DNA from: an uncultured Solirubrobacterales bacterium
GTDB taxonomy: Bacteria; Actinomycetota; Thermoleophilia; Solirubrobacterales; Solirubrobacteraceae
NCBI GenBank assembly: GCA_963804675.1
Contig: CAWDRI010000001.1
Span: forward strand, 2,663,842-2,727,841
DNA length: 64,000 nucleotides
Direction: 5' to 3'
Part shown: one piece after another, positions 21,415 through 41,425 of the stretch
How positions within the stretch are numbered: position 1 is the first letter of the stretch
How the letters are laid out: each line of letters opens with the position of its first letter
Program-made: the position numbers and the translations under genes
The notes under the pieces: generated by a model
What the model was told of the DNA's origin: nothing
Database searches by the model: none
What the model saw: only the letters and a program-made list of their open reading frames with translations

Positions 21415-21696
21415 TCATGGCTTCCCGGATCTGTACCGTGCCCTGGTGGACGAGCGCGTCGATCGTCGGGGCGCTCCAGGTGGGAGGAACTGGCCGCGGC
21501 GCAGACTGGGCCGCCGCGGCTTCAGCAGCGCATGAGTCGCGGCCCAGCCGCCCGGTGTGGTGGCCGCGAGGTTCGCTCGCTCGCTCGGGGGGCCGGTCAA
21601 CGCCCACGCACCAGCGGGCGCAGAGACCGCGAACGCAAGCACCATGATCACCGCCCAGCAGCCTAGCCAGACGTGGCTACGCCAGCCGCAGTTCAC
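21415..21696 (-). pseudogene. 5' remnant of a secreted-protein gene downstream of lipoprotein B
   Basis: GTG directly after the B stop; signal peptide AVIMVLAFAVSAPAGAWA; second copy at 31306-31466 cut by an RHS fragment. Confidence 0.45.
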
Positions 21697-22721
21697 CTAT
21701 CCACCGATCGGTGCGCGAAGATTCCCGACAGAAGTCGCAGAATTTTGATCGGCGACAGGCCGATTGATTGTCCGAACCACCGCACCAGCGCTGTCGAGCC
21801 ATTCCGCACGTGTTGGCTCGCTTTCGTCAATCAACTTGTTCGATCGCTGCGTCAGCTCGCGTCGCAGTGCCGGCGAAAGACCTGGACGATCCAACTCAGA
21901 CGCCAGACTTTTCAATCTCAGGCTGATCTCCATATCAGGCATTGGGGGTACAAACGCAAACGAATTACCACTTACGTTCACTGTCACTGGCTCGTTGTAT
22001 CGATAAGAAAGCCTTATCGATACAACGTCATCTGGTACGAAACCTACTATCGTTTCTCTGCGACCAAGGGCCACGGGACTAAAGACAGCGCGAAATTCTT
22101 CGATAGCTGCAAACGGTTCACATTCATCGGCACTCCAATTATGCTCTCCACGAACCTCAATCACACAAAAGACTGGCTCGATCAAACGTCGCCGGCGCTG
22201 TTCAATGAGCTCGTGCCGCACCATAGCCGGCCGGCAGTGGGCCGGCGGTAATGGTTCTGCACGACCAAACGCGGGAATAACAAAATAGCGACTGCCGTCA
22301 CCATTTGTGGCGATCTCGCGCATATAGTCCGGATAGTAATTGGACAACTCAAAAGCCTTACCTAGGACCTGGGCAAGCCTAGTTTCATTACTTAGAGCCT
22401 TCTCACTTGGCGACGCCAACCTCCGAAAGATCGCAAACCGCGTCAGTATACTCATCGGCAAAGACGTCGAAAGCGCCTGAGGAAAGAGTACGTTGAGGGT
22501 GCAGAAATTTATATCTGACGATAGCGCCAATGCAAGACGAAGCAAACGATTCATTCATATAGACCGCCGAGCTATCACCAGCAGAACATCCTGCGCTGAA
22601 TACCGTACCCATAAGAACCAACAGCACAATCAACGCACCCCTGCGGACCCTAACCAACATACTAGTTTGCGTCCTACGACCCCTCATTACCAGGTTTCCA
22701 TGGATTGAACTACAGAGTCAG
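21535..22721. repeat. ~1.19 kb direct repeat, copy 1 (copy 2 at 31306-32490)
   Basis: Near-identical sequence at offset 9770/9769 covering tip-2 end, lipoprotein B and downstream stub. Confidence 0.92.
21697..22687 (-). pseudogene. Lipoprotein family B, frameshifted copy (B2)
   Basis: Split into ORFs 22403..22687 and 21697..22554 by one extra A (GGAAAGAG near 22483 vs GGAAGAG in intact copy). Confidence 0.85.
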
Positions 22722-22955
22722 TCAATCCAGTGCGTGTAATAGGACAGCCATCTTCGCCTTTCCCTGCAGCAGGCAAAGCAAGCAGACACCATCCAGCATC
22801 GCCTGCGCTGAGTGCCGGCAACAGCACAACCCTTTCGTTCCTGGCGACCGCTGCCGGTGGGTCGCTAGCCGAACCACACCCAGCGGTGCACATAGTCGTA
22901 ACAACACCCAAGACCGCCATCGCTATCAGGTGGCGCCGGCAAGCGGGCTAGTGAC
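22687..22955 (-). pseudogene. Chimeric stub: lipoprotein A3 N-terminus fused to the end of RHS tip 2
   Basis: 22725-22955 matches 29169-29400; ends DSVVQSMETW* identical to the end of the 32456 ORF. Confidence 0.85.
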
Positions 22956-22959
22956 ACCC

Positions 22960-23510
22960 ACCAGGAACTCGACGCGTCGCCCTCTCACCCCCGCACCCCG
23001 GCGCCTCAAAAATCTCCGGGTGCCCGGCCCGCGGCTTCATCCCGGGCAACGGTGGCGATGTTGCGCCTGGGCACGACGCATTGAGAAGTACGTCGTGGTG
23101 AACAGACCTTTCTCCGTGGTGAACATATTAATAGACGGTACCCACACGAGGACAACAGCGCCCGGTCAACCAGCCCGCGGTAGGGCCTGATCCGCGTCGC
23201 CACGCCCCCTTCATACGCCATGAGGTCCCCAGACACTGTCGCCGTTATGAGTTCGCACACGCCCACTGCTGGGTGCGCCGGCGCTTCCCATTCCCGCGCA
23301 CCCGGTAATTTGAACGCCTGCGGCCTGCCGGGTCCTGTCCTTCCTGTCGATCGGCTTGCCGTACGCGCGAAGCGGCGCCATTAATCTGCGGGGCCAGCGT
23401 CAGTCGATGTCGGGCCAACCCATCAACCCGGCGGTCACCGCAAGCGACTACTTCGCTTTGCTTGGCGCCCGCCCGTGCATCTCGCGTACCGGTGGCATTA
23501 ATGACTCTCA
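22960..23510 (-). pseudogene. Decayed lipoprotein family A gene
   Basis: Frameshifted pieces GVCELI..RGLVDRALLSSC, VLLNASCPGATSPPLPGMKPRAGHPEIFEAPG and TRRVPG match the family A C-terminal half. Confidence 0.7.
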
Positions 23511-24475
23511 AGATTCTTACCCTCTCCAGCATCATAGCCTGCATGCAAATGTTTGAGCACCAGCAGACGCTGTGAGACTCCCGTTCCACCGGATACCATA
23601 ACCCACGCGCCTCGAACGTGTCGTACCACCCCTTCCCCTTCGGCCACCGGTCCTTCAAAAAATCCGGGCTGACCAGCCACAGGTGTCATTGTCGGCGGTA
23701 GTGTCGGGTTGGAGCCAGGATGTGATGCATCTACCAGCACGCTACCGACCACCATCGAGCCACCGACACTGTAGGACGTGCTAGCGCACGATAGCAGCGC
23801 GTGCGCCACAGTATCCGTTTGCGGTGCCGCACTGATCACGACAAACCCTTCCTTTGCGCGCAGTCCGGGCAGCCCAGATGCCCGAATACTGCAGACGCCG
23901 CCTCCGGGTAGCGTCGGAGCGACCCATTTCCGGCTGGGCCGCAAGAAGATAAGTGGCCTACGCTCTGCCGTGCTTCGAAACATTGGCCGCCCAAACCTAT
24001 TCAGTGGCATAAACGGCGGAGCCCCCGGGGGTACCGAGATACCGAATGCTCGCACCAGGCGTGCCCTCCCCCCTTTAATTTCAATAGCTGCTACTCGCAT
24101 ACCGTCGGACAACCCCGTCTCAGCGCGAGTAAGAACTGGGTGACCGCCTTCAACTGAGACAGCACTAACGGCACTTGTCGTCACCACTACGCCCACCCTC
24201 CTCGACGGAGGGCCATAGCTATGCCAACTTTCACCGACTATCAAGTTACCCGAACTTTTTCCTCCCATACACCCACTGTGCGCCACTACCATACACCAGC
24301 CTGCCTCGCCACTATAAACTGGCGGCACTAGAAGTACATTATAGGACAGAGCGGTCTGTGACTGGCGCGGTGAACTCGCACACGCCGATATAACACCTGC
24401 ACATACCGCCACGACCACAACTACCCCTACCCAATGTATCCCGCGCATGATACTAATATGAGATTCTACACACAT
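23498..24475 (-). CDS. Lipoprotein family A (A5), partner of RHS tip 4
   Basis: Lipobox-like ISAC; VLLVPPVYSGEAGWC, LLSCASTSY, SVLVDASHPG, VRGAWVMVSGG, QRLLVLKHL. Confidence 0.8.
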   Translation of the reverse strand: MCVESHISIMRGIHWVGVVVVVAVCAGVISACASSPRQSQTALSYNVLLVPPVYSGEAGWCMVVAHSGCMGGKSSGNLIVGESWHSYGPPSRRVGVVVTTSAVSAVSVEGGHPVLTRAETGLSDGMRVAAIEIKGGRARLVRAFGISVPPGAPPFMPLNRFGRPMFRSTAERRPLIFLRPSRKWVAPTLPGGGVCSIRASGLPGLRAKEGFVVISAAPQTDTVAHALLSCASTSYSVGGSMVVGSVLVDASHPGSNPTLPPTMTPVAGQPGFFEGPVAEGEGVVRHVRGAWVMVSGGTGVSQRLLVLKHLHAGYDAGEGKNLESH

Positions 24476-24526
24476 ACACTCTGCACCGTGGTGGCATCAC
24501 AATAAAACATGCTACTATCAAATCGG

Positions 24527-26990
24527 TCACTCGCCGGACGCCGCCCAGGAACCATCGGTAGCGTACGTAAAGAAATTTTCTATAACTTCTTCAGTTCCTT
24601 CGCCTGTGCAATTCCATCGAGGCGACAGCCCGTTAATCACTTCATTGAAGGCACCCATATTATAAACGCGCCCCCACGTCCAGACACGGTATTTGTAGCC
24701 GCGTATGCATCCGTCTTTGATATACGCTGCACCGTCTTTCGTATTGGTCCACGCCTGCCCAGGCCCTTTCTTGCCATTTGAGTGGTTACATGCCATTTCA
24801 TGCCTGCCAGATATGAATGGCGATTCTTCGTACAAACATATTTGAACTTCGAACCCGCTAACCACCCCGGTGCATTGGTAATTAGCTACATCCCAAAGTT
24901 CTTCACCAAATGGTTCTCCGAACTTCACAATAATCTTACATAGATTATGATTGCTGGCCGCGCTCGCCATACTGCCGTTACCTGCACCTTCACCTTCGCC
25001 TTCCCACGAAGGTACTCTCCCCGGCGGCTTTGCTGCCCTCGCCTTTTCTGCAAGTTCTTGTTCACGCTTTGACACCTGTTCTGCTGAGGTTCTGGCGGCG
25101 AATTCTCCGGCGGTGGTGTTGTTGGGGTTGCTGACGTATGCTGCGTTGTGGTTGGTGGGTATTCCGGGTGATAGGTCTTCGGGTGGTTGTAGCATTGCGC
25201 CGGTTTGCGGTACGTATGTGATGCCGTCTTGGGCGATGCGGCCGGTGCTGTTTTCGCTGGTGAGGCCGCTGGCGCCTTGGTAGGCGTACTTGGGTGGTTC
25301 GCCTTTGCTGTTCGGCGCGCCGAACTCTGTGCTGTTGTACGTGGTGAGTAGTTTGGTGGCGGTTTCGCTGTCTTCGACGGTGGCGACGATGTTGCCCTGC
25401 AGGTCGTGTAGTTGTAGCGTTACGTTGGCCTTCGCGGTGCCTGTTTGGATTGCGGCTAGTCCGCCTTCGATGCCGGGTATCCGTCGTTCCCATTTGCCGG
25501 GTTCGCTGGTCCACGCGATGCTGTTCCCTGGCGCGTCGTAGTGGTCTGTGACGGTGGAGGATGTTTTGCCGGTGTTGATGGTTTCTAGGACGCGGTCTTC
25601 GGGGTCGAGTTTGTATTCGCTGGTCTCGCCGTTCTGGGTTTGCTTGTATGTCTGGCTGTCGAGGTAGTATTCGCTGGTGATCGCTTGGCCGTCCGCGTCG
25701 CTGGCCGGCAGTGTTGTGGTGTCCCCGAACGCTTCGTAGGTGATGCCCGTGTCGGTCATCTGGTCGGCGGAGTCGTAGCCGTGCGCTTCAACGACAGGTG
25801 TTTCGGTGGTGCATTTCCCTTCACTGCCAGGTTTGCTGGTCGCGAGGCTCGTGCGGTCGCTGTCTTCGTTATATGTGTAGGCGCGTGTGGTGCAGCCTTC
25901 ACCGGCCGGTGTTTCCTGTACTTGTGTGAGGCGGCCCGCGTTGTCATAGGTGTAGTTCTCTGCGGCGAGGCTGCTGTTCTGCGAGAGCGCTTCGCCGTGG
26001 ATCGACGGCGTGACACTGTCTTTGAACCACGTGCATTTTTCGGTGCAGTGCGTCACCTTGTTGTATTCCAACGCTGTGGCTGCACCCACAGGATTGTAGG
26101 TGTAGGACGCGGTCATGCCGTTCGGGTAACCCACGCTCGTCATCCTGCCCTGCGCGTCATAGCTCGCCGTGAATGTCCCAGCGCCAACGTCGAGGAGTTC
26201 GGTCAGCTCGCCTGTTCCCGTGCTGTAGTGGTAGGTCTGTTCGCCTTTGCCTTCGTCAGAACCATCGTTGACTTTCGTGACCTGCCCGTTTTCGTTATAC
26301 GTGTAGGTCGCTGTGTCCCCTGAGGCGTCGGTGTAGCTTTCGAGCTCGCCCCGCCTGTTGTAATTGCTGCTCACCGTCTGTGTTTTTTCACCGACAATGG
26401 TGCTTTGTTCTTCGAGCATCCCGGTAGTCGTGCTGTACTTGTCGCTGATCTTCGGCATCGCCTTGTCGTTGCTCGATGTCTCTTCGGTCGCCAATGCCTG
26501 CCCGCTCAAGTCGAATCCGGTGCTGGTTGTCCTTTCGGTCGTGCCGAAGGTTTCGACGATCTTTTCGGCCTGGTCCCACATGTTATACGACGCGATCGTC
26601 TTCGTCGGCAGTTCGGGCATCCCGTTGCCAGGCTGCGCGACCGGGAGTGTTTGGCAGGGTAGGCCAACCCATTCGGAGTGGCTGCGGCACGCTGTCGTTT
26701 CGGCCTCTGTTTTGGCGGTGTAGTAGACGGTCTTGGCGTCGTGCGCGGCCTGGTCGTCGGGCATCCAGGTCTCGAGACGGTTGTTGTCTGCGTCGGCAAC
26801 ATAGATCTCGCCGGCCGCGTTGACCGCTATCTCCTCGGGGTCGTGCAACTGTCCTTCGCCGCTGCCGTAGGAGCCGTAGGTACCCTCGAACCCGCCCGTG
26901 GACGAGAACTCCTGGACGCGGTTGTTGGCGTTATCCACGACGTAGAGATTGCCAGCAGCGTCGGCCGCGATCGCTTCGGGGCCCTTCAGC
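24527..26990 (-). CDS. Orphan RHS/YD cassette (NHL repeats + YD repeats + non-canonical core + Cys-rich tip 4), 5' truncated
   Basis: GPEAIAADAAGNLYVVDNANNRVQEF NHL blades; YNRRGELESYTD, YDAQGRMTSVGYPNG, YDNAGRLTQV; LHDLQGNIVAT; no signal peptide (track ORF starts 26938). Confidence 0.88.
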
Positions 26991-27940
26991 CCTCACCATT
27001 GAGCGCCAGCCAAAACACATTGAGCACCGACTGAAATATGGGTTATGCGTTGAGATCATCCACGCGTGTCAGCCCAGCGCCAAACGCGAGCCGGCGCGGG
27101 ACATCCCTGTCCCGCGCCCCAGGCACGACCGTCACGTGAACCCGACCTCGCGACGCCCGCGAAAGTCACCCACCCAACCGGCTGGCTTCACCTACATGAA
27201 TCCCCACCCGCAAGTCTTTGAGCAGCGCCAGTCGTTGCGCAGCCTTGGCCTTTTTCACCTCAAGCCACGCTCCACGCACGCGACGCGCGAATAGTTCCCC
27301 TTCAGGTCCAGGGCGTTCACCTCCGGGCGACGAGAATACGCCGGGATGACCCGGTACTGGCTTCATGTCGGGAAGTGATGGGGGGGTAGCGCCGGGGCTA
27401 GATGCACTAATCAGAACGCTGGCAACCAGCGGCCAGCCATCCAGTTCATATGATGTGCTTGCACACGTAATGAATCCATCGCCTATGATCCCGGAAAAGC
27501 CATGCACTTCACTGATCACTTCACCGCCATTTACCGTAAGATCCCTTGGATTATTCCTACTCCTTATCTCACAGATTCCCTTTAACGGCCTAGCTGGATT
27601 CGCGACCCGGCGAGCCGATAGCCACTTAATGAGGGGATTTGTAGTTTCGCGGCGCGGCTGGGGAATAGTCATTTCAGCAGAATCCAGCGGTATAAAGCGC
27701 GGAAATCCACCACCTGCATTTCTTAGCTTTCCACTCACTTTCACTACCACCGCCCGCAATCCTCCGGGCAACGCCTTCTCTGCTCTCGTCGGCACAGATA
27801 CGCCTCCTTCGCCGATCCTCACGCGTGCCACCGCGGCCGTTGTCAAAGCCACTCCAACAGTTTCCGCATTACTACCGCTGCCGTCGGTACCGCTCCATGC
27901 TTCAACGATCACCGGCGCATGACTCTGAGCGCCATCGCAC
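26640..27940. repeat. ~1.3 kb near-identical direct repeat, copy 1 (copy 2 at ~34543-35843)
   Basis: Offset 7903 (27166/35069; 26938/34841); weaker homology continues through the RHS bodies to ~25075/32990. Confidence 0.92.
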
Positions 27941-28263
27941 CCACCGCCCGAAACATTTCCGACGACAATAAAGCACCAGCCCGCCCAGCCAGCTTCGGTT
28001 TCCGGAAGAAGCAGTACTTCATAGGGGTGCACAGTCCCCGAGTCTGGCCCCGCACCGACCACTACACCAGCGGTTCCGCACCCCACCCAGCACATCACGC
28101 TCATCACCGCCGCTATCCCTGCAAGCAACCAAGCGACTATCGGCCGACACAGCAGTCGTCCTTGCAGCAACGATCTCACAAGTCCACCGTGTCTGGCGAC
28201 CTTGATCTCTCGATCATGCTGCATCTGCTCAAAGCGGTGCTCTTTCGTTGACCTAAAAATCAT
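27166..28263 (-). CDS. Lipoprotein family A (A4)
   Basis: Lipobox-like WVGC; VLLLPETEAGWAGWC; C-terminal ~270 aa identical to 35069..36127. Confidence 0.82.
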   Translation of the reverse strand: MIFRSTKEHRFEQMQHDREIKVARHGGLVRSLLQGRLLCRPIVAWLLAGIAAVMSVMCWVGCGTAGVVVGAGPDSGTVHPYEVLLLPETEAGWAGWCFIVVGNVSGGGCDGAQSHAPVIVEAWSGTDGSGSNAETVGVALTTAAVARVRIGEGGVSVPTRAEKALPGGLRAVVVKVSGKLRNAGGGFPRFIPLDSAEMTIPQPRRETTNPLIKWLSARRVANPARPLKGICEIRSRNNPRDLTVNGGEVISEVHGFSGIIGDGFITCASTSYELDGWPLVASVLISASSPGATPPSLPDMKPVPGHPGVFSSPGGERPGPEGELFARRVRGAWLEVKKAKAAQRLALLKDLRVGIHVGEASRLGG

Positions 28264-28269
28264 ACTTTA

Positions 28270-28440: not shown

Positions 28441-28452
28441 GACACCGCCGCC

Positions 28453-29406
28453 TTACCGAGGTCCAGTTGCCTGAAGATGCTCAAGCAGCGTCAGTCGTTG
28501 AGCTTGGGTCTTGCCACCCCACACCACCAGCCAGCCGTTCTGTACGCGGCGAGCTACCTGCGGGCCTAGCTGTCCGGGCTCTTCGAACACATTGGTATGC
28601 CCGTGGACGACTTTCATCAATGGCAACAACGGTGGCGTCGTATATGGATGCGCCGCGCCGACCAACACGCTTGCTCCCATGGGCCAACCGGCAAGGCTGT
28701 ATTCGGCACTGAAGCACGCCAGGAACGCTTCGCCAACCAACCCACTGTATGCCTGCGCCTTACTGATGACATACGTGCCCCGCGCTGCCAGGCCCGACCT
28801 ATGCGTCACCTTGATGACGCACGGAGCAGGCGCCGGGCCAGTCGCATAGACAACCTTTTGGTTCGGCACTTCGAACATCAACCCGTGCCCGCCGATACTC
28901 CGTGATAGAGGATATATCGTTTGCCGCAGCTCTCGTCCGTGCACGTCAAGCGGCGTGGGACGAAACGGAGAGCCAGCCATGGCGGGCGTCTGCCCTCGTA
29001 TCGCCCACGCGACCGCACGCAAATGGTCCGGCAAGAAATTCTCCGGCTTGGTCGGCAACGGCGCACCTCCATCAAACGACACCGCAGCGACTTCACTGCT
29101 CACCAGGTCCAAGCCATCAGTTTCAGGCCTCGCCGCGCTCGTACCCCAGGTCTCGGCGACAATAGGGTATCCAGTGCGTGTGGTAGGACAGCCATCTTCG
29201 CCTTTCCCTGCAGCAGGCAAAGCAAGCAGACACCATCCAGCATCGCCTGCGCTCAGCGCCGGCAGCAGCACGACCGTTTCGTTCCTAGTGACCGCCGCCG
29301 GCGGGTCGCTGGCCGCGCCGCATCCAGTGACGCACATAGTCGTAACGACACCCAAGACCGCCATCGCCATCAGGTGGCGCCGGCAAGCCGGCCTAGTGAC
29401 TCTCAT
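28453..29406 (-). CDS. Lipoprotein family A (A3)
   Basis: Lipobox-like VTGC; VVLLPALSAGDAGWC, FLACFSAEYSLAGWP, ARRVQNGWLVVWGG, QRLTLLEHL. Confidence 0.82.
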   Translation of the reverse strand: MRVTRPACRRHLMAMAVLGVVTTMCVTGCGAASDPPAAVTRNETVVLLPALSAGDAGWCLLALPAAGKGEDGCPTTRTGYPIVAETWGTSAARPETDGLDLVSSEVAAVSFDGGAPLPTKPENFLPDHLRAVAWAIRGQTPAMAGSPFRPTPLDVHGRELRQTIYPLSRSIGGHGLMFEVPNQKVVYATGPAPAPCVIKVTHRSGLAARGTYVISKAQAYSGLVGEAFLACFSAEYSLAGWPMGASVLVGAAHPYTTPPLLPLMKVVHGHTNVFEEPGQLGPQVARRVQNGWLVVWGGKTQAQRLTLLEHLQATGPR

Positions 29407-29500
29407 TTATCCCCACCCGCAAATCCTTGAGCAGCGCCAGCCGTTGTGAAGCCCTGGCCTCCCTCACCTCAAGCCACGCTCCACGCACGCGACGCGCGCA
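29393..29500 (-). pseudogene. 3' stub of an A1/A4-like lipoprotein gene
   Basis: ARRVRGAWLEVREARASQRLALLKDLRVGINESH*; DNA matches 27200-27289; overlaps A3 ATG. Confidence 0.8.
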
Positions 29501-29511: not shown

Positions 29512-30516
29512 CTATGCCACCGCTGCACGTAGGTGTTTGAGCAACCTCTGACGCCGCGCCTCTCCATAGCCGCCGCTCACCACGAGCCACGCTCCCGGAA
29601 TGCGGCGTGCGACCATCGGACCGTTCGAACCCAGCGCGTCAAATACGTCGCCAGAGCCTGCGACGACCCGCATGTGCGGGAGTCGTGCAGGCCGACTCCC
29701 GGGGTGACGCGCATCGAGAAGCACGCTGGCGACGATCGGCCAACCCTGCAGTGAGTACGACGTGCTTGCGCACGAAAGAAACGGTCGGCCAAAGAGATCA
29801 TCGACGGGCGTAGCGTGCGTAACCACAAACCCTGCATTCGTGACGAGCCGGTGCAGCTCAACGGTGCGAAGCTCGCACGCGCCGGCAGGCTCTGACGCCG
29901 GGGGCTTCCAGCCTTTACCACGGCGCGGCTGATTCACTAGCGAGCCTTCTTCATTATCCCGAGGAAGAGGCTTACCATCGCGGTTCAGTGGGATGAAGCG
30001 TGGCAGGTGCGACGGCGCCATATGTGGCGGCTGACCGAACAGCGATGGAGTCTTCACCTCGGGTGCCCACGCACCGCGGGCCGTAACTACAAGCGCCCGC
30101 AAGCCCTGTGGCAGCCCCGGCTCACGGCGTGTAGACACGGGCCTACTTCCACGAATCTCCACTGCGGTTACGGCGCTTGTCGTCACCGCAAATCCCTCAG
30201 CCTGGCTTTTGCCTCTTTCGACGATCCAGAATTCTGCAAGTATAGGCCCGCGTTTTAGTCGGTCAATCTGACATCCGTCACCGGAAACGACGGTTATACA
30301 CCAACCGGCAGCGCCTCCTCGCAGGATAGGCAATAGCAACACTTCTCTGCCTACCTGCCGTGCCAACATGACAGTCGCGGATGACCCCCCACATCCATAC
30401 GCGGCAAACGTGCACGTGCTGGCAACCATTACCAGCACCCATATAGCAACCCGCGACCTACAAAGCATAGCTACCCCAATAGACCACGCATGTCTTTTAC
30501 TATAGTTCGTGATCAT
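29512..30516 (-). CDS. Lipoprotein family A (A2), partner of RHS tip 3
   Basis: Lipobox-like AYGC; VLLLPILRGGAAGWC, FLSCASTSYSLQGWP, ARRIPGAWLVVSGG; start overlaps tip-3 stop. Confidence 0.82.
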   Translation of the reverse strand: MITNYSKRHAWSIGVAMLCRSRVAIWVLVMVASTCTFAAYGCGGSSATVMLARQVGREVLLLPILRGGAAGWCITVVSGDGCQIDRLKRGPILAEFWIVERGKSQAEGFAVTTSAVTAVEIRGSRPVSTRREPGLPQGLRALVVTARGAWAPEVKTPSLFGQPPHMAPSHLPRFIPLNRDGKPLPRDNEEGSLVNQPRRGKGWKPPASEPAGACELRTVELHRLVTNAGFVVTHATPVDDLFGRPFLSCASTSYSLQGWPIVASVLLDARHPGSRPARLPHMRVVAGSGDVFDALGSNGPMVARRIPGAWLVVSGGYGEARRQRLLKHLRAAVA

Positions 30517-31305
30517 AATCTTGTCCTTCGCAGGTCACGTATGCGCCAGTTTCGTCTGGTGCTAGCCCGCCAAACGCCCTCGATTCAATGCCGGGACCCC
30601 AAATGTAGCCCCACACCCATCCAGTGTATAGGAACCCATCAGTGCAGCCTCCCACCAGTTCTTCCGTCATAAGCCCACGAGCGTTATGAGCGATCGCTGG
30701 CTTACCTTCGTTTACACAATATTCCTGTTGCCAAGGACCGCTCTTGTATTTCTTGTAAAGGCAAGCCTCAAACTTGAGGTTTGGCTGCTCTTTTTTGCAC
30801 AGAAACAGGGCACCAAATACCAACTTCTCTTCTCCTGGCGCCTTTATTTGGAAAAGCGCTTCGCACGACGGTTCACTGGGCTCCGTGTTTATCCTCGCGA
30901 TCGTGGCCCCACCGCCCGCCGGTCCCTCGGCTACTTCTATAAACCCGCCTCCGCCCGTGGGCGTAGGCACAGCACCCGGCGGGTGTGCTGCTTCTTCGCG
31001 TTCGCGGTTTTCTTGTTCGCGGTGAGAGACTTGTTCTGCTGAGGTTCTGGCGGCGAATTCTCCGGCGGTGGTGTTGTTGGGGTTGCTGACGTATGCTGCG
31101 TTGTGGCTGGTGGGTGTTCCGGGTGCGAGGTCTTCAGGTGATTGTAGCACTGCGCCGGTTTGGGGTATGTATGTGATGCCGTCTTGGGCGATGCGGCCGG
31201 TGCTGTTTTCGCTGGTGAGGCCGCTGGCGCCTTGGTAGGCGTACTTGGGTGGTTCGCCTTTGCTGTTCGGTGTGCCGAACTCGGTGCTGTTGTAGGTGGT
31301 GAGTA
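30500..31305 (-). pseudogene. Orphan RHS core + Cys-rich tip 3 (no own start)
   Basis: LLTTYNSTEFGTPNSKGEPPKYAYQGASG..EFAARTSAEQVS core shared with other cassettes; begins abruptly at ~31305. Confidence 0.85.
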
Positions 31306-32490
31306 GTCGCGGCCCAGTCGCCCGGTGTGGTGGCTGCGAGGTTCGCTCGCTCGCTCGGGGGGCCGGTCGACGCCCACGCACCAGCGGGCGCAGAGACCGC
31401 GAACGCAAGCACCATGATCACCGCCCAGCAGCTTAGCCAGACGTGGCTAAGCCAGCCGCAGTTCACCTATCCACCGATCGGTGCGCGAAGATTCCCGACA
31501 GAAGTCGCAGAATTTTGATCGGCGACAGGCCGATTGATTGTCCGAACCACCGCACCAGCGCTGTCAAGCCATTCCGCACGTGTTGGCTCGCTTTCGTCAA
31601 TCAACTTGTTCGATCGCTGCGTCAGCTCGCGTCGCAGTGCCGGCGAAAGACCTGGACGATCCAACTCAGACGCCAGACTTTTCAATCTCAGGCTGATCTC
31701 CATATCAGGCGTTGGGGGTACAAACGCAAACGAATTACCACTTACGTTCACTGTCACTGGCTCGTCGTATCGATAAGAAAGCCTTATCGATACAACGTCA
31801 TCTGGTACGAGGCCTACTATCGTTTTTCTGCGACCAAGGGCCACGGGACTAAAGACAGCGCGAAATTCTTCGATAGCTGCAAACGGTTCACATTCATCGG
31901 CACTCCAATTATGCTCTCCACGAACCTCAATCACACAAAAGACTGGCTCGATCAAACGTCGCCGGCGCTGTTCAATTAGCTCGTGCCGCACCATAGCCGG
32001 CCGGCAGTGGGCCGGCGGTAATGGTTCTGCACGACCAAACGCGGGAATAACAAAATAGCGACTACCGTCACCATTTGTGGTGATCTCGCGCATATAGTCC
32101 GGATAGTAATTGGACAACTCAAAAGCCTTACCTAGGACCTGGGCAAGCCTAGTTTCATTACTTAGAGCCCTTTCACTTGGCGACGCCAACCTCCGAAAGA
32201 TCGCAAACCGCGTTAGTATACTCATCGGCAAAGGCGTCGAAAGCGCCTGAGGAAGAGTACGTTGAGGGTGCAGCAATTTATATCTGACGATAGCGCCAAT
32301 GCAAGACGAAGCAAACGATTCATTCATATAGACCGCCGAGCTATCACCAGCAGAACATCCTGCGCTGAATACCGTACCCATAAGAACCAACAGCACAATC
32401 AACGCACCCCTGCGGACTCTAACCAACATACTAGTTCGCGTCCTACGACCCCTCATTACCACGTTTCCATGGATTGAACTACAGAGTCAG
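31306..32490. repeat. ~1.19 kb direct repeat, copy 2
   Basis: Matches 21535-22721. Confidence 0.92.
31467..32462 (-). CDS. Lipoprotein family B (B1), partner of RHS tip 2
   Basis: ALIVLLVLMGTVFSAGC lipobox-like; IVGLVPDDVVSIRL motif; ATG 32456 overlaps tip-2 stop (TAATG). Confidence 0.8.
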   Translation of the reverse strand: MVMRGRRTRTSMLVRVRRGALIVLLVLMGTVFSAGCSAGDSSAVYMNESFASSCIGAIVRYKLLHPQRTLPQALSTPLPMSILTRFAIFRRLASPSERALSNETRLAQVLGKAFELSNYYPDYMREITTNGDGSRYFVIPAFGRAEPLPPAHCRPAMVRHELIEQRRRRLIEPVFCVIEVRGEHNWSADECEPFAAIEEFRAVFSPVALGRRKTIVGLVPDDVVSIRLSYRYDEPVTVNVSGNSFAFVPPTPDMEISLRLKSLASELDRPGLSPALRRELTQRSNKLIDESEPTRAEWLDSAGAVVRTINRPVADQNSATSVGNLRAPIGG

Positions 32491-34893
32491 CGGACTGTCC
32501 ATGGCACTGCATCCACTCGTGCTGTGGGTTATATATCGAGCTATTAGGATACGCTCGCCTCGTCCCATCACTATATTCTTCGCCCCAAACCCAAGCAGTA
32601 TAGTAATATCCCGCCCCGCATACATATGTAGCCTCTACTCCACCGCCCGTCGTATTGCTAAATCCGACCCATTTTTTGTAGGGACTCACAAGACAATAGA
32701 ATTGCTTACCTGCCCCGGATGTTTCAGACACATAACCACAGAACTGTAGACGGAAAATTTCTACTGAACGTTTGCACTGAAAACTTCCAAGCGCATACAT
32801 AAAGCCAGATCCATCCTCTGTTTCGTCAAGTTCCCAATGCACTACACAATTTGCGACACTTGCAATCGTAGCCCCTCCATCCCCTTCTTCTTCCCCTGTT
32901 CCCCCGATCGTAGCACGTGGAGAAGGTGCTGATCCTGCAGGTCGCTTCGCTTCTTCGCGTTCGACTATTTCTTGTTCGCGGTGAGAGACTTGTTCTGCTG
33001 AGGTTCTGGCGGCGAATTCTCCAGCGGTGGTGTTGTTCGGGTTGCTGACGTATGCTGCGTTGTGGTTGGTGGGTATTCCGGGTGATAGGTCTTCGGGTGG
33101 TTGTAGCATTGCGCCGGTTTGCGGTACGTATGTGATGCCGTCTTGGACGATGCGGCCGGTGGAGCTTTCGCTGGTGATCCCGCTGGCGCCTTGGTAGGCG
33201 AATTTGGGTGGTTCGCCTTTGCTGTTTGGTGCACCGAACTCTGTGCTGTTGTAGGTGGTGGCTAGTTTGGTGGCGGTTTCGCTGTCTTCGACGGTCGCGA
33301 CGATGTTGCCTTGCAGGTCGTGTAGCTGTAGTATGACGTTGGCCTTCGTGGTGCCTGTTTGGATGGCGGCGAGTCCACCTTCGATGCCGGGTATCCGTCG
33401 TTCCCATTTGCCAGGTTCGCTCGTCCACGCGATGCCGTTGCCCGGCGCGTCGTAGTGGTCTGTGATCGTTGAGGACGCTTTTGTTTCCAGGATGCGGTCT
33501 TCGGGGTCGAGTTTGTATTCGCTGGTCTGCCCGTTCTGGGTCTGCTTATACGCCTGACCGTCTACGTAGTATTCGCTCGTGATCGCGTGTCCGCCCGCGT
33601 CGCCGGCGGGTAGTTTTGTGGTGTTGCCGAATGCTTCGTAGGTGGTGCCTTCGTCGGTCATCTGGTCGGCGGAATCGTAGGTGTGCGCTTCGACGACGGG
33701 GTTTTCGCCCGAACATTTCCCTTCACTGCCGGGTTTGCTCGTCGCGAGCTTAGTGCGGTCGCTGTCTTCGCTGTATGTGTACGCGCGTGTTGTGCAGCCT
33801 TCGCCTGAGGGTGTTTCCTGTACCTGTGTCAGCCGGCCCGCGTTGTCATAGGCGTATTCCTCGCCGGCGAGGGTACTGTTCTGCGAAAGCGCTTCGCCAT
33901 GGATCGACGGTGTGACGCTGTCTTTGAACCACACACAGTTTTCGGTGCAGTGCGTCACCTTCTTGTATTCCAGCGTCGTGGCCCCACCAACAGGATTGTA
34001 CGTGTAGGACGCGGTCATGCCGTTCGGATAGCCCACGCTGGTCATCTCGCCCTGCGCGTCGTAGCCTGCTGTAAAGGTGCCCGCGCCAGCGTCAACAAGT
34101 TCGGCCAGCTCACCAGTTTCTTCGCTGTAGGTATAGGTCTGTTCGCCTTTGCCTTCATCAGAGCCGTCTTTGACTTTCGCGACCTGCCCGTCTTCGTTAT
34201 AGGTGTACGTCGCGATATCGCCGGAGGCGTCGGTGTAGCTTTCCAGCCCGCCACGCCTATTGTACTTGCTAGTCACGGCCTGTGTTTTTTTCACCGACGG
34301 TGGTGCTCTGTTCTTCGAGCATCCCGGTACTCGCGTTGTATTTGTCGGTGATCTTCGGCATCGCCTTATCGTTACTTGAAGTCTCTTCGCTCGCGAGCGC
34401 CAGCCCACCCGCGCTGAATTCGGTCTTGGTCGTCCGTTCGGTCGTCCCAAAGGTTTCGACGATCTTTTCCGCCTTGTCCCACATGTTATAGCTGATCGTC
34501 TTGGTCGGCAGTTCTGGCATCCCGCTGACACCCGACTGCGCCACCGGGAGTGTCTGGCAGGGTAGGCCAACCCATTCGGGGTGGCTGCGGCACGCTGTCG
34601 TTTCGGCTTCTTCTTTAGCGGTGTAGTAGACCGTCTTGGCATCGTGCGCGGCCTGGTCGTCGGGCATCCAGGTCTCGAGACGGTTGTTGTCTGCGTCGGC
34701 AACATAGATCTCGCCGGCCGCGTTGACCGCTATCTCCTCGGGGTCGTGCAACTGTCCTTCGCCGCTGCCGTAGGAGCCGTAGGTACCCTCGAACCCGCCC
34801 GTGGACGAGAACTCCTGGACGCGGTTGTTGGCGTTATCCACGACGTAGAGATTGCCAGCAGCGTCGGCCGCGATCGCTTCGGGGCCCTTCAGC
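32456..34893 (-). pseudogene. Orphan RHS/YD cassette (NHL + YD + core + Cys-rich tip 2), frameshifted
   Basis: Paralogue of 24527..26990 with the same 5' breakpoint; T7 at 34285-34291 vs T6 at 26383-26388 splits it into ORFs 34269..34841 and 32456..34705. Confidence 0.88.
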
Positions 34894-35843
34894 CCTCACC
34901 ATTGAGCGCCAGCCAAGACACATTGAGCACCGACCGAAATATGGGTTATGCGTTGAGATCATCCACGCGTGTCAGCCCAGCGCCAAACGCGAGCCGGCGC
35001 GGGACATCCCTGTCCCGCGCCCCAGGCACGACCGTCACGTGAACCCGACCTCGCGACGCCCGCGAAAGTCACCCGCCCAACCGGCTGGCTTCACCTACAT
35101 GAATCCCCACCCGCAAGTCTTTGAGCAGCGCCAGTCGTTGCGCAGCCTTGGCCTTTTTCACCTCAAGCCACGCTCCACGCACGCGACGCGCGAATAGTTC
35201 CCCTTCAGGTCCAGGGCGTTCACCTCCGGGCGACGAGAATACGCCGGGATGACCCGGTACTGGCTTCATGTCGGGAAGTGATGGGGGGGTAGCGCCGGGG
35301 CTAGATGCACTAATCAGAACGCTGGCAACCAGCGGCCAGCCATCCAGTTCATATGATGTGCTTGCACACGTAATGAATCCATCGCCTATGATCCCGGAAA
35401 AGCCATGCACTTCACTGATCACTTCACCGCCATTTACCGTAAGATCCCTTGGATTATTCCTACTCCTTATCTCACAGATTCCCTTTAACGGCCTAGCTGG
35501 ATTCGCGACCCGGCGAGCCGATAGCCACTTAATGAGTGGATTTGTAGTTTCGCGGCGCGGCTGGGGAATAGTCATTTCAGCAGAATCCAGCGGTATAAAG
35601 CGCGGAAATCCACCACCTGCATTTCTTAGCTTTCCACTCACTTTCACTACCACCGCCCGCAATCCTCCGGGCAACGCCTTCTCTGCTCTCGTCGGCACAG
35701 ATACGCCTCCTTCGCCGATCCTCACGCGTGCCACCGCGGCCGTTGTCAAAGCCACTCCAACAGTTTCCGCATTACTACCGCTGCCGTCGGTACCGCTCCA
35801 CGCTTCAACGATCACAGGCGCATGACTCTGAGCACCGTCACAC
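34543..35843. repeat. ~1.3 kb direct repeat, copy 2
   Basis: Matches 26640-27940. Confidence 0.92.
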
Positions 35844-36127
35844 CCGCCTCCTTGAGCGCCTCCGATAGCGATAAAACACCAGCCAGCCCAGCCGGCATTG
35901 GCTTCCGGAATAAGCAGCACTTCATAGGGATGATTAAGGCCAGAGTCTGCTCCGACACCGACCACGATACCCGCGTCGCCGCACCCCATCCCACATACCG
36001 TGCTCGCGACTACCGCTATTCCCACGAGCAACCAGGTCACTCTACGCGGATACAGCGCTTGTCCTAACAGCACCGACCTCACCAATCCGCCATACCCGAC
36101 GACCTTGATCTTGCGATTACTGCTCAA
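35069..36127 (-). CDS. Lipoprotein family A (A1), partner of RHS tip 1
   Basis: Lipobox-like GMGC; VLLIPEANAGWAGWC; starts 32 bp after tip-1 stop. Confidence 0.82.
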   Translation of the reverse strand: MSSNRKIKVVGYGGLVRSVLLGQALYPRRVTWLLVGIAVVASTVCGMGCGDAGIVVGVGADSGLNHPYEVLLIPEANAGWAGWCFIAIGGAQGGGCDGAQSHAPVIVEAWSGTDGSGSNAETVGVALTTAAVARVRIGEGGVSVPTRAEKALPGGLRAVVVKVSGKLRNAGGGFPRFIPLDSAEMTIPQPRRETTNPLIKWLSARRVANPARPLKGICEIRSRNNPRDLTVNGGEVISEVHGFSGIIGDGFITCASTSYELDGWPLVASVLISASSPGATPPSLPDMKPVPGHPGVFSSPGGERPGPEGELFARRVRGAWLEVKKAKAAQRLALLKDLRVGIHVGEASRLGG

Positions 36128-36159
36128 AATAGCACCCTTCCGCCATCTCAGGCCATACC

Positions 36160-36921
36160 CTATTCGCCATCATCTTCAGCATTATTATCCTGACCAATCT
36201 CTGGCGACACATCAACATCCGAGGCTTCGCCGGATCCCTGACATGTAGCGGAGCCATGCGATGTATTCGCGCCTGCTGACCAGCGGCCGCCTGACCATAT
36301 GGTAGGCCCGCCAAGACCATGCCAATAGCGTCCATAGGCCCATACTATGAATACGCTGCCTCCTTCACATCCAAAATCTTGTCGAATGTAACCTCCCATA
36401 TCGTATTCGTAGTCATGGAAATCGTGATGGCGAAAGGCCACTTTGTTTTCAGCGTAACTATCATTGGGCTGTCTTTCATAGAGATACACGTCCAATTCAA
36501 ACACATTTAGACCCTCGCAGCGATACTTCCCTTCGTAGGTCAATCCGCCACCATCGTCGGCCCACACCGCTGCGCCCACTTCGCACCCATCGAGGTTGAT
36601 ACCGTGTTCTGGGTCTGGTTCACAATATGCGATTTCCCCCGCACATACGCCAACCGGGTGTGCTGCTTCTTCGCGTTCTCGTATTTCTTGTTCGCGATGA
36701 GAGACTTGTTCTGCCGAGGTCCTGGCAGCGAACTCGCCAGCAGTCGGATTATCCGGGTTGCTGACGTATGCTGCGTTGTGGTTGGTGGGTATTCCGGGTG
36801 ATAGGTCTTCGGGTGGTTGTAGCATTGCGCCGGTTTGCGGTACGTATGTGATGCCGTCTTGGGCGATGCGGCCGGTGCTATTTTCGCTGGTGAGGCCACT
36901 GGCGCCTTGGTAGGCGTACTT
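36160..36921 (-). pseudogene. Orphan RHS core + Cys-rich tip 1
   Basis: KYAYQGASGLTSENSTGRIAQDGITYVPQTG core, then tip with GCEGGSVFIVWAYG and ATCQG. Confidence 0.85.
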
Positions 36922-37380
36922 ACTGTAGGTGGCAGGCTGGTGGTCGGTACGCCCCACTCGGTCGTTTCGGCTTTGCTGGCAGGTTCGGTCGCGGTTTCTG
37001 ACGCGCGCGCGGTCTCGCTGACGTTGCCGTGGAGGTTGGTGAGTTGGAGCACGGGTTCTTCGCCGTTGGCTTGGGTCGCGACGAGTCTACCACCGAGACC
37101 GGCGATGTTGCGCGACCATTCGCCTAGATCGGATGCAAAGGATGGGTCGTTGCTTGGGCCGGCGTACTGAGTTGTCGTCGAAGCGCTCCGTTTTCCGGTG
37201 GCGACCGGCGATCTTTTCGGCGAGTTCGCGGGCGATGCGTTCTTCTTCGGCGATGCAAGCGTCGAGGCCTTCGGTGGCGGTGTTTTGGCCGTAGGTGATT
37301 GCCCATGCTGCGGGCTCGCTGGAGGCGCCGGTGGGGTCTGTTTCGTTGAGGGGGTTGCCACCGGTGTAGGCGTAGTCAAA
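36922..37380 (-). pseudogene. Scrambled fragments of a canonical (DPTG-type) RHS core
   Basis: YAYTGGNPLNETDPTG..ELAEKIA (37380-37206) placed before VATGKR..EWGVPTTSLPP (37205-36927); both homologous to 40288..41425. Confidence 0.8.
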
Positions 37381-38253: not shown

Positions 38254-40239
38254 TCAAGCAGCGTCCTCGCCTTCACCGTAAATTCGCTCACGCGCCGTCC
38301 GAGCATCCGCGACGATCATCCGCACGTTCTCGTTCTCATCATCCTCAAACCGTGCGATCAGCTCATCCAGCGTGAGTAGAGCCTCGTCATTACGGTCAAG
38401 CTTGCCGAGTATGTCCGCCTTGCTGTAAAGCGCCGAGGCCGGGACTTCACGCGCCTGCGTGCCAGTCGCGTCCCCAAATCTCTCGGCGGTGTTGTCGAAA
38501 ATCGCCAATGCCTCCTCCCCGTACTGACCGGCCAACTCCTCAAACGCAGCGTTGGACTCATCTTCGTGTCCGAGCCGCTCGAGCACCATGGCCTTGCCGT
38601 TGAGAGCTACCGCGATTGAGTGGCGCAAGCCCGTCTCCTTGCAGCCCTGAAATTGATCGATCACTTCGTCGAACGCTTCGATCGCCTCCTCCCAGCGCTC
38701 GTCCGCGAGTAGAGCTGTTCCCTTGGCGACTAACGCGTCCGCAAGGCGTTCACGCCACCCGGGCTCAGCCCCATCACCGGCGCGCTCGATCAATGCATTG
38801 GCCAGTACAATCCCCTCCGTGGGCTGCCCCGTAACAGCGAGCAAACCGGCCTTTTCCTGCAGCGCCCTCGCAACCACCTTGCATAGCGCCGGCGCATCAT
38901 CATCACCATATCGCTCTGCGATCTCACCCCAGACGGCCATCGCCCGCTCAAATTGCCCCATCCGCTTCAAGCAGTACGCCTCGTGCCCAAGCGTCTGAGC
39001 CAGCACTTCGACAACCTTTGGATCGTCCTCGCTCGAGAGGCGCGCAATCATCTCCTCATCGGTCGCGACGGCCTCCTTCCACCGGCCGAGCCTGCCCAGC
39101 GCCTGCGCCTTGTAGTTCAGTCCTGTAGCGGCATTCAGCCACGACTCGGGTTCCTCCGTCTCGCCGAAACGAGCCGCTAGATTGTCAACGACCGCGATCA
39201 CCTCCTCATTGCGACCCTCGTCGAGCAACAGCGACGCGCTCGTCGTGAGTGCGTCGGTGATCTTTTCGCGGACATGTGGCTCAGGCTCTATCCCGTAGCG
39301 GCGTATCAATTCTTCATAGCCCACGATCGCCTCCTTTGCTCGCCCGAGCTTATTTAGAATCCACGCCTTGCTCGCAAGAGCATCGAGGCCCGCGTACCGA
39401 CGTCCCGGAGGTGGACGCTCACCAAAGGCCTCAAGAGCCTCCTCCTCCACCAAAAGCGCCTGCTCATAGCGACCAGCCTTCTGCAGGACGTAGGACTTGC
39501 CACCCAGCGCAACGGCCACCGACGTGCGTAGCTCTGACTCCGGTGCGCCCACGAAACGCGCTAGTACCTCGTCATAAACGACCAGCGCCTGCTCGTACTC
39601 ACCACAGTCACCGAGCACTCCAGCCTTCTTGTTCAGCGCTCTAGCTATAACCTCACGCACCGTTTGCTCTTCGCTCGAACCGTAGCGCTCGACCAGCTCG
39701 CTCAGCAACGTGACCGCCTCTGGACTGCGATCGGAATTAGCCAGCGCACTGGCCTTGAGCCTCAATGAATCGATCACATGCTCGACGCACCCCGGTGGCG
39801 GATCACCGCCGAAGCGCTTCAACAATGCGTTGACCGTGGCTATCGTCTGCTCGTAACGCCTCATTCTAAACAGCGCCTTTGCCCGGGCATGTAGCGTCTT
39901 CGCAATGATCTTCCGTGCCTGCGCAAGCGCGCCTTGAGGATCAGACGCATGGCTAGTCCGACTACACAATTGATCGAACGCGTTACCGGCCTCAACCAGC
40001 CGATCGAGCATTACAAGCGCACCACCTTGCCTGGCGAGCGCAGTCCGCACCCGCCTCTCGCACTCTCCGCCCCGCACCTCGCCGAATTGCTCGATCACCT
40101 GCCTGTAGCACGCTACCGCGTCCTCATATTGACGCAAGCGCAGTAATTCATCGGCTTCACAGATAAGCGAGTCCACAACCTTATAGCTACACGCATCGTG
40201 TTCCGTGTTGGCGTAATCGTCTGAGGCTATGGTGTTCAC
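38254..40239 (-). CDS. TPR-repeat protein
   Basis: Repeated ~45-aa helical units A.AL.NKA..L..LGR.EEA...[YF]DE...RFG. Confidence 0.88.
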   Translation of the reverse strand: MNTIASDDYANTEHDACSYKVVDSLICEADELLRLRQYEDAVACYRQVIEQFGEVRGGECERRVRTALARQGGALVMLDRLVEAGNAFDQLCSRTSHASDPQGALAQARKIIAKTLHARAKALFRMRRYEQTIATVNALLKRFGGDPPPGCVEHVIDSLRLKASALANSDRSPEAVTLLSELVERYGSSEEQTVREVIARALNKKAGVLGDCGEYEQALVVYDEVLARFVGAPESELRTSVAVALGGKSYVLQKAGRYEQALLVEEEALEAFGERPPPGRRYAGLDALASKAWILNKLGRAKEAIVGYEELIRRYGIEPEPHVREKITDALTTSASLLLDEGRNEEVIAVVDNLAARFGETEEPESWLNAATGLNYKAQALGRLGRWKEAVATDEEMIARLSSEDDPKVVEVLAQTLGHEAYCLKRMGQFERAMAVWGEIAERYGDDDAPALCKVVARALQEKAGLLAVTGQPTEGIVLANALIERAGDGAEPGWRERLADALVAKGTALLADERWEEAIEAFDEVIDQFQGCKETGLRHSIAVALNGKAMVLERLGHEDESNAAFEELAGQYGEEALAIFDNTAERFGDATGTQAREVPASALYSKADILGKLDRNDEALLTLDELIARFEDDENENVRMIVADARTARERIYGEGEDAA

Positions 40240-40287
40240 CTCTAGGATATCCTTTACTCGGCTTTACTCGGCTATTATACTCCAACC

Positions 40288-41425
40288 CTACAGCAGTTCT
40301 CCCAGTATCCCCTCGACAATGTCGTCTCCCACATCGTCTCCTGCATCGTCCTCTGTCCCATCCGCATCCCTCCCGACACTTCGCCTCTCAATGCGAGGCT
40401 CAATACGAACCTCAGGCGGTCGCTCATCTGGATGACCACACGCGGCCACGGCAGCGGCGAGGCCCACGCAAAGGCCACGGCGAAAACTGAATCCTGCTTG
40501 CTCCTCGCAGGCCCGGTCATTGTCCACCGAGCAGAGCGGCACAACAGAACCAAGAAGCGGCAAGCTTTCGCCAGCGCCTTTCTTTCCGCCGAGCGATTGG
40601 TAGAACACGCCGTCTTCGGTACGTGCTGCTTCCTTAGCTAGACCTTCTCTAACCGGCCTGGCGTAGGCCGCGTATTCGTATTCGCCTTCTTCCCAGTATT
40701 CTTCTTCGTAGTATTCTTCGCCTTCTGGGTAGCCGTATTCTTCGTAGTAGCCTTGGTGTTCGGCTGCGAATGCGGCTGCGTCGGCTGCCCATTCGGCGGC
40801 GAGCTTGGCGGCTTCGGCGGCGATTTTTTCGGCGAGTTCGCGGGCGATGCGTTCTTCTTCGGCGATGCGGGCGTCGAGGCCTTCGGTGGCGGTGTTTTGG
40901 CCGTCTGTGATTGCCCATCCTGGCGGCTCGCTGGAGGCGCCGGTGGGATCTGTTTCGTTGAGGGGGTTGCCGCTGGTGTAGGCGTAGTTGTTCGCGTCGG
41001 CGCCGGGGAGGGGGTCTGGCTGCAGGTACCGGCCGAGCTGGGGGATGTATGTGCGGGCACCCATTTGGGCGATGCCGGAGGGTAGTTCGGTGGGGACCTC
41101 GATCCCGCCGAGCCAGGCGTACTTGGGAGGGAGGCTGGAGGTCGGTACCCCCCATTCGGTCGTTTCGGCTTTGCTGGCGGGTTCGGTCGCAGTTTCCGAC
41201 GCGTGCGCGGTCTCGCTGATGTTGCCGTGGAGGTTGGTGATCTGGAGCACGGGTTCTTCGCCGTTGGCTTGGGTCGCGGCGAGTCTACCACCGAGACCGA
41301 CGATGTTGCGAGACCATTCCGCCGCGTTGGACGTCCAGGATGGGTCGCTGCCGGGGCCGGCGAAGTTCGTCGTCGTCGACCCGGTTCGTTTGCCTGTCGC
41401 GACGGTGAGGATCGCGCGGCCTTCG
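40288..41425 (-). pseudogene. Orphan canonical RHS core with acidic C-terminal extension
   Basis: NLHGN, KYAWLGG, MGARTYIPQLGRYLQPDP, NNYAYTSGNPLNETDPTG; RHS homology extends upstream of the 41250 track start to ~41425. Confidence 0.85.

Follow-up and report, generated by a model that had tools for sequence, protein, structure and literature searches.

The stretch analysed here, called the window below, comprises 64,000 nucleotides from the genome of an uncultured Solirubrobacterales bacterium (GenBank assembly GCA_963804675.1, contig CAWDRI010000001.1, positions 2,663,842 to 2,727,841). On its minus strand, from 41478 to 21535, lies an array of RHS cassettes and lipoprotein genes: five headless RHS 3' pieces in tandem (R1 to R5, 41478 to 24527; a 5' end in 0/5), five full-length genes of a lipoprotein family named A, two of a second family, B, a TPR gene and broken pieces. 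The GC content per kb is 0.50–0.64 over the array versus 0.66–0.75 in the left flank. Homologous cysteine-containing tips end R2, R3, R4 and R5, and directly 3' of each lies a lipoprotein-type gene, with overlapping stop and start codons at R3-B1 and R4-A2 and a spacing of ~30–50 bp at R2-A1 and R5-A5. An earlier note, made from the sequence alone, had described tandem orphan cassettes without 5' ends, full of duplications and hybrids, and all of this was confirmed in the window. It had listed the five cassettes together; R2 to R5 share the tip family and have a lipoprotein gene behind, but R1 belongs to another, cleavable subfamily with a TPR partner.

In what follows, G000 is the source genome, C1 and C2 are its contigs, and other G and L numbers designate comparison genomes and loci. 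R1 (40288..41478) carries the full autoprotease motif (Arg, PDP, DPTG) and a TIGR03696 match (E = 3e-13); its tip falls outside the Cys-sandwich family, and it shares 84% DNA identity with C1:2912050-2912852. The gene behind it (38254..40239) has Pfam TPR repeats, is likely a cytoplasmic partner and has a 51% homologue behind a full-length R1-like gene (C1:3937658). R2 (36160..37376) is a broken hybrid in which R1-type core pieces (37376-36912) are joined to an R5-type core end (36921-36655); it carries tip 2 (36160-36597), whose partner is lipoprotein A1 (35069..36127). R3 (32456..34889), an orphan cassette made of an NHL end and RHS, ends in tip 3 (32459-32860) and is followed by B1 (31467..32462), whose family is unrelated to A, mobile and mostly not RHS-linked (it adjoins RHS in 1 of 19 outside loci). 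The short orphan cassette R4 (30500..31307), consisting of a core end and a helical linker, carries tip 4 (30503-30877) and precedes A2 (29512..30516). Next come A3 (28453..29406), an orphan whose nearest relative (56%) accompanies a tip type that the source genome was not seen to carry, as is the case for spare immunity genes, and A4 (27166..28263), a hybrid duplicate of A1. R5 (24527..26986), again an NHL end with RHS, bears tip 5 (24530-24952) and is followed by its partner A5 (23498..24475). The array closes with a broken family-A piece (22955..23416; 80% DNA identity to C2:409125-409569), a hybrid in which an A3-like 5' piece is fused to copied last codons of tip 3 (22725..22955), and B2 (21697..22687). 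The full family-A genes, which start at 36127, 30516, 29406, 28263 and 24475, are 35–89% identical to one another; the two B copies are near-identical.

Two units are doubled: one of 3.1 kb, containing an A gene and an NHL-RHS core (32969-36117 versus 25055-28214, 89.7%), and one of 1.2 kb, containing the end of tip 3 and B (31305-32490 versus 21535-22721, 98%). The hybrids are R2, the piece at 22725-22955 and A4, which is 60% identical to A1 over its first ~100 amino acids and 100% identical thereafter. Independent evidence on the assembly came from Logan short-read contigs of other soil runs. Every one of the four junctions between tip and partner is bridged by such contigs with 0–1 differences, and so is the point at which R3 is truncated at its 5' end: R2tip-A1 by 35892-36773 (0 differences), R4tip-A2 by 30421-30727, 30374-30591 and 30439-30627, R5tip-A5 by 24459-25043, R3tip-B1 by 32388-32591 and the truncation point by 34745-34940. 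The array as a whole is covered by no single contig, and among the matches listed none bridges the junctions A2-A3-A4. The possibility that the array is a misassembly of dispersed loci is thus rejected for the bridged junctions only, stretches without contig cover proving nothing; the array is real. The +1 bases at 34285 (in a run of A) and 22483 (in a run of T) lie in homopolymers and are absent from the independent contigs, so that the frameshifts of R3 and B2 are likely consensus errors. In one contig, from run X1, tip 2 stands on an R3-type core, with 109 letters shared, a weak hint that may reflect a tip swap or another copy.

The source genome contains 18 core ends of NHL-RHS type. A search of this genome for a full-length parent had been suggested, and the nearest full-length gene was found on the second contig (C2:394508-403750), coding for 3080 amino acids. 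The order of its parts is a predicted signal peptide, Big_13, DUF6531 (794-846), RHS strands, Cys-repeat and NHL propellers (NHL at ~1780-2365), RHS again, core, linker and tip. DNA identity to this parent is 94% over 1942 bp for R3 and 86% over ~1.9 kb for R5. PF05593 was detected in R3, R5 and the parent, and TIGR03696 in R1 alone, not in R5 or the parent; the window cores align to R1-type cores. As to the core sequence that parent and cassettes were expected to share, NSTEFG is common to both, but the EFAARTSAEQVS linker is specific to the window cassettes and missing from the parent.

The parent is followed by two orphan cassettes (C2:394508-413611, L001) in which the tips belong to a second beta-rich family, each with cytoplasmic-type genes paired to it and lying behind it; a family-A gene and the remnant of another lie between these cassettes. 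In a sister genome (OY969574.1) a parent is likewise followed by orphans with one core and unlike tips, and one of these orphans closely copies tip 2 and A1 (L077; A 87%); the named relatives are uncultured Solirubrobacterales. The earlier description of tips and lipoproteins as allelic series of single families is therefore good for the R2–R5 tips and for A, though not for B, and is limited to the window, because on contig 2 and in the sister genome tips of other families, with partners of cytoplasmic type, sit on this very core. At C1:53801-47562 (L002) the same core is found with the Cys tip family and a family-A gene, both broken by insertion sequences that we take to be IS630-like. An RHS island of ~35 kb in another genome (L052-L053, G029:C8:1779000-1816000) combines a single core with six or more tips and holds numerous secreted or lipoprotein genes that are not related to one another.

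The tips of R2 to R5 form one family with 4–6 cysteines, and cysteines are the only invariant residues among 42 tips. The model of tip 4 (pLDDT 86.5) is an all-beta, Ig-like sandwich whose best fold row is an adhesin repeat (4mkm; Z 8.3, root-mean-square deviation (rmsd) 3.2, 111 aligned), tied with many Ig-like domains. Foldseek gave no match for the tip at E ≤ 0.001, and no enzyme family or fold match was obtained in the searches run. In Pfam, NCBIfam, PADLOC and PDB-sequence searches the tips, A and B were unmatched save for one DUF2009 hit (E = 0.019, 1 of 22 tips); for A, this lends support to the earlier reading. The tip is predicted, from its model, to be a non-enzymatic disulfide beta-sandwich acting by binding. 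Stand-alone secreted homologues were considered and rejected, the 11 short matches examined (6 of them read) being RHS fragments. In the ESM Atlas, unnamed clusters of 115–122 amino acids from Actinomycetota appeared at 0.90–0.93, their recognition value being low, and are a lead only. Two full-length tip-bearing RHS genes have no partner gene: L041 and, in G000, C1:2143821-2134411 (L003), the tip of which is 42% identical to tip 3.

RHS shells are known to enclose toxins that undergo self-cleavage. In BiTLP, a teneurin-like protein (TLP), an Arg and two Asp residues (R2103, D2116, D2140) cut off the C-terminal domain, mutation of the Arg lowering cleavage, and in teneurins of mammals this motif is missing and the uncleaved C-terminus passes through the shell (PMC13018210). 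Among 61 distinct core ends compared, a sample biased to relatives of R5 and A, all three residues were present in 5, both Asp without Arg in 10, the first Asp only in 5 and none in 41. The Arg was absent from all 37 core ends bearing the Cys tip family. R2 to R5 lack it, have their first Asp shifted by two residues (as we read the alignment) and have Ala at the second Asp; the Rhs motif, Arg with DPxG-X18-DPxG, is found in R1 and not in R2–R5. The parent also lacks the Arg and keeps a shifted Asp and DQAG. With Arg and DPxG lost, the tip is likely not self-cleaved, a conclusion which holds less firmly for the C2 parent than for R2–R5 and the majority of congeners.

Family A appears to be of lipoprotein type, lipidation being predicted: 34 of 43 family-A locus copies match our own lipobox pattern and the remainder have a plain signal peptide. 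In the window the strict lipobox is found in 3 of 5; A1 (MGC) and A2 (YGC) fail, yet have a Cys at the equivalent place. The model of A2 (pLDDT 94.7) consists of an FN3/Ig-like N-domain and a C-domain which resembles, to a middling degree in each case, the C-domain of MucB (Z 7.2, rmsd 4.0, 96 aligned) and Tsi3, an immunity lipoprotein (PDB 4luq; Z 6.5, rmsd 3.2, 92 aligned). The likeness is confined to the C-domain, whole-chain TM-scores against MucB/RseB or Tsi3 fold relatives being 0.22–0.26, and Foldseek returned a single row for A (9e-4, TM 0.22). Family A has no name and is very large, with 955 clusters at 50% identity. It was judged not to be homologous to B, to other partner lipoproteins ('C') or to the two anti-sigma-type proteins of G000 itself, hhalign giving probabilities of at most ~1%. 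A third lipoprotein family of ~170–200 amino acids stands behind divergent tips at L004:9386, L043, L047, L048, L050, L029 and L016, and its domain recurs twice in secreted 620-amino-acid proteins (C1:4035336, C1:744034). At L021 and L023 a family-A gene with a plain signal peptide sits in a conserved non-RHS locus, behind a gene that is presumably thioesterase-like.

The context of family A was counted in its 28 best loci, one per genome and with G174 left out. A Cys tip lies upstream in 17 of them (once after a 700-bp gap, twice broken), another RHS context is found in 5 and one is ambiguous. Conversely, A is directly behind the tip in 10 of the 16 tip matches outside the profile training set, so that the adjacency expected in other genomes was recovered; exclusive pairing was not, tip-like domains being paired also with other lipoproteins or with no gene. 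Co-variation was measured on 24 tip/A pairs (3 from the window and 21 from other loci, broken pairs left out), 18 of which have enough core. Identities of tips and of A are correlated over the 24 pairs (Mantel r = 0.39, P = 0.0005), and nearest neighbours agree in 10 of 24 and within the top three in 18 of 24. For the 18 pairs with cores the coefficients are 0.48 for tip and A, 0.18 for tip and core (P = 0.07) and 0.11 for A and core, and the partial correlation is 0.47, so that the two vary together irrespective of the core. In G073 cores that are 98% alike carry tips 35% and partners 39% identical, and at L075/L035 cores of 57% carry tips of 65% and partners of 66%; unlike pairs on like cores, and the reverse, indicate that tip and partner keep to each other rather than to the core beside them. 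In G009 a tip 67% identical to tip 4 has a partner with 71% identity to A2. Orphan partners in tandem were seen in the window, G009, G118 and G068.

Family A occurs in 70 of 150 congeners, a count which takes in receptor-type matches and G174, and in 4 of 150 genomes of an order-wide draw, of which two were congeners and the remaining two came from different genera of the same family. The tip profile matches 22 of 150 congeners and, weakly, 2 of 300 phylum genomes (one being G301), one of these matches reading as a secreted non-RHS protein. A test of the pairing across Thermoleophilia had been suggested; the pair was found in one uncultured Solirubrobacterales genus.

The weaker matches to family A are single-pass membrane proteins with a family-A ectodomain, and they are of two kinds. 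The first has a short cytoplasmic N-terminus of anti-sigma type, one transmembrane (TM) helix and the ectodomain, and its gene lies directly behind a gene for a sigma factor of the extracytoplasmic function (ECF) type. It is assigned to the anti-sigma type by gene place and topology, sigma inhibition being putative; no anti-sigma match was obtained in Pfam or NCBIfam. An ECF sigma gene is upstream in 6 of the 12 loci fetched as weak matches (two in other genera) and in 6 of 8 later loci (L092, L096, L098, L099, L100, L101, L114, L116-L119, L122); the sigma factor was confirmed by Pfam for four loci. The second kind has an N-terminus of 'VIEEARRR' and a TM helix and stands beside a small GntR gene (L091-L094, L096-L098, L102, L123), which two such membrane-protein genes often flank. 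One regulator or the other is present in 11 of the 12 loci, with up to four receptor-type paralogues per locus. A4 resembles the ectodomain of one anti-sigma-type protein (30% over 330 amino acids, E = 8e-24). In an unrooted tree of 74 sequences, 51 exported copies stand apart from 23 receptor-type domains (SH-aLRT 99). The receptor type is the more widespread, a hint but no proof that the exported lipoproteins derive from receptor-type proteins. The membrane proteins with family-A ectodomains could possibly constitute a new one-component signalling module.

The array lies next to other surface genes. Upstream of it, on the minus strand, low-GC surface genes occupy 42006-47934 and 41499-41993; among them are a Cys-repeat secreted protein, whose repeat recurs in the parent RHS protein (amino acids ~1200-1500), a secreted subtilase-like and Vgb-propeller protein and a small PKD-like lipoprotein. 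On the other side it is bounded by an HTH gene and a nucleotidyltransferase-like gene with a weak DUF6036 match (19968-21142, minus strand); in several congeners, family-B genes are bordered by toxin-antitoxin-like genes of a similar kind.

We propose, with a probability of about 0.5, that the array belongs to a polymorphic, surface-acting effector-immunity system in which a receptor-derived lipoprotein decoy provides immunity. The parent and the orphan cassettes, which share long core DNA, would form a store of swappable 3' ends; recombination within the core would transfer tip and partner together from one core to another, as the pattern of like and unlike pairs suggests. The carrier would be exported by Sec and reloaded in the same way. 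With the Arg and DPxG lost, the tip would stay on the shell and likely leave it through an opening, as in teneurins, and its predicted disulfide beta-sandwich would work by binding, likely to an envelope protein of related cells. By sequence, the partner looks like a receptor ectodomain in which a lipobox has replaced the cytoplasmic part and the TM helix; given the homology of its body to ectodomains of sigma-linked membrane proteins, it likely catches the tip of its own cell. It would thus sequester the cognate tip, while spare partners such as A3 and A4 may guard against foreign ones. The sigma- and GntR-linked receptors of congeners would be the natural target of the tips or an alarm sensor for them. 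The system likely serves rivalry (or signalling) between close kin.

Several observations weigh against this proposal. There is no sign of tip toxicity, which stays hypothetical, and a catalytic motif sought in the tips was not found, only Cys being invariant. The two full-length tip genes that lack a partner gene behind them (G000 C1:2143821; L041 in G078, a genome 69% complete) are awkward, since a lethal toxin would be hard to tolerate without protection in trans. The parent and the sister-genome cores retain both Asp in shifted form and may therefore still be cleaved, and a 15-kDa tip is small enough that it could fit inside the shell. As regards pairing, 5 of the 28 best family-A loci have no RHS within 1.5 kb, and behind the other 6 of the 16 tip matches, all weak, stands another kind of lipoprotein gene (3), a gene of cytoplasmic type, an insertion sequence or an unrelated gene; co-variation of adjacent genes is expected from linkage alone, and kin are not independent. 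No receptor-type member was found in G000 (88% complete), and the GntR-linked kind is not enriched in genomes with tip and A (4 of 18, versus 32 of 150 overall). A complex prediction for tip 4 with A2, made with alignments, scored 0.04; the controls did not fold, and the result was used neither for nor against binding.

The binding-type fold, the tolerated partner-less tips and the uncleaved core would also suit contact signalling without killing, in which the tip is an identity ligand for the neighbours' ECF anti-sigma- or GntR-linked receptors and switches transcription, the lipoprotein buffering self-signal or acting as a co-receptor. The domain shared by anti-sigma-type and GntR-linked proteins, in up to four paralogues per locus, fits such a scheme, but the receptor domains are separate from the RHS partners in the tree (mean identity 32% between and 38–39% within), receptors and tip types do not match one to one, and G000 is without receptors; where orphan cassettes bear other tips, their partners are of cytoplasmic type, as at toxin-immunity loci. 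We therefore regard contact signalling as rather unlikely. The same tentative standing is given to a broader formulation, a polymorphic language of ligands and receptors among soil actinobacteria, in which an RHS shell that has ceased to release a toxin shows a swappable Ig-like tag that neighbours read through ECF- and GntR-linked receptors and that a lipid-anchored receptor domain mutes on the cell's own surface; if true, it would be a bacterial parallel to the switch of teneurins from toxin to recognition.

Two further explanations do without an effector and seem to us improbable. The lipoprotein might be a tether that holds a secreted RHS adhesin by its tip, or might bind the same tip type on a kin cell. 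No cell-wall anchor is seen at the parent's C-terminus, propeller and Ig-like modules are many, the top fold rows of the tip are adhesin repeats, and anchoring has been proposed for MafA/MafB (PMC3482391). A tether, however, needs no allelic series, the adhesin rows are tied with many Ig-like folds, and tipless spare lipoproteins, together with many full-length RHS genes without family A, suit defence better. Alternatively, A might be mere cargo gathered in RHS islands, co-varying with the tip by adjacency and not binding it. B behaves in this way, A stands alone at some loci, and large RHS islands such as that of G029 contain many unrelated secreted genes; yet A lies immediately behind one tip family, often with coupled stop and start, in ~18 congeners and tracks the tip rather than the core, and such fidelity at tip identities of 11–80% implies selection. 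Under the effector-immunity proposal, this would be a genus-wide RHS family with the cleavage motif lost, a binding-type tip and a partner taken from the ectodomain of a stress-sigma regulator. The tip would be the first ligand candidate for an uncharacterised anti-sigma family, the small, well-folding pairs (125 + 283 amino acids) are material for allele-specific binding tests, and the family may offer a living bacterial model of an RHS toxin turning into a recognition protein, as in teneurins.

Among known systems, variant-specific pairing has a counterpart in Proteus mirabilis IdsD/IdsE, inner-membrane proteins which are reportedly delivered by a type VI secretion system and have no RHS shell. 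The likeness lies in a variant-specific pair used in kin discrimination (PMC6682164). Arrays of one immunity family in tandem, reshuffled by recombination and containing hybrids, are described for esaG, tsaI and tipC of type VII secretion systems (PMC9484751), and envelope-located lipoprotein immunity against envelope-acting effectors for Tsi3 (PDB 4luq) and Imm65 (PMC3482391). The effectors concerned are, as described there, enzymes or membrane toxins, not RHS proteins, and have no link to sigma receptors; Imm65 is the only lipoprotein immunity family named, and Solirubrobacterales taxa are not mentioned, in the part of PMC3482391 available. In RsiV/sigma-V of Bacillus subtilis (PMC5014341) one anti-sigma ectodomain both detects a foreign protein and inhibits it, which is the logic put forward for the family-A domain; its ligand is lysozyme, with no polymorphic ligand series in the portion available, and the likeness is one of logic, no homology being claimed.

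The closest precedents are the orphan C-terminal (CT)/immunity modules of Rhs and contact-dependent inhibition systems (PMC3150448), which likewise are 3' cassettes without a head whose core DNA recurs in a parent, have a partner gene behind and are transferred as a unit between strains. RHS/YD repeats with an RHS-associated core, a variable C-terminal domain on a conserved carrier and orphan cassettes, as in Rhs polymorphic toxins, were all found here. The CTs of those modules are toxins that have no relation to one another and are cleaved from their carrier (PMC3150448), whereas here the tips are of one fold family without a catalytic motif, the protease motif is degenerate, the partner is a lipoprotein and the parent lies on another contig. 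With TLPs such as BiTLP the system shares a secreted NHL and YD-shell protein, a variable C-terminal domain and a downstream partner gene (PMC13018210, whose supplement lists three Solirubrobacter TLPs). TLPs are arranged as FN-plug, NHL and shell and are self-cleaving; in our parent the NHL propellers lie inside the RHS strand region after DUF6531, and neither the NHL-shell order nor the self-cleavage motif was found, judged from descriptions rather than from TLP profiles. A search of open-access full text gave no description of the tip, of family A or of a link between RHS and anti-sigma proteins. What sets this system apart from its relatives, as read from the sequences, is the loss of the RHS autoprotease motif (Arg and DPxG), as in mammalian teneurins, together with the homology of family A to anti-sigma- and GntR-linked ectodomains.

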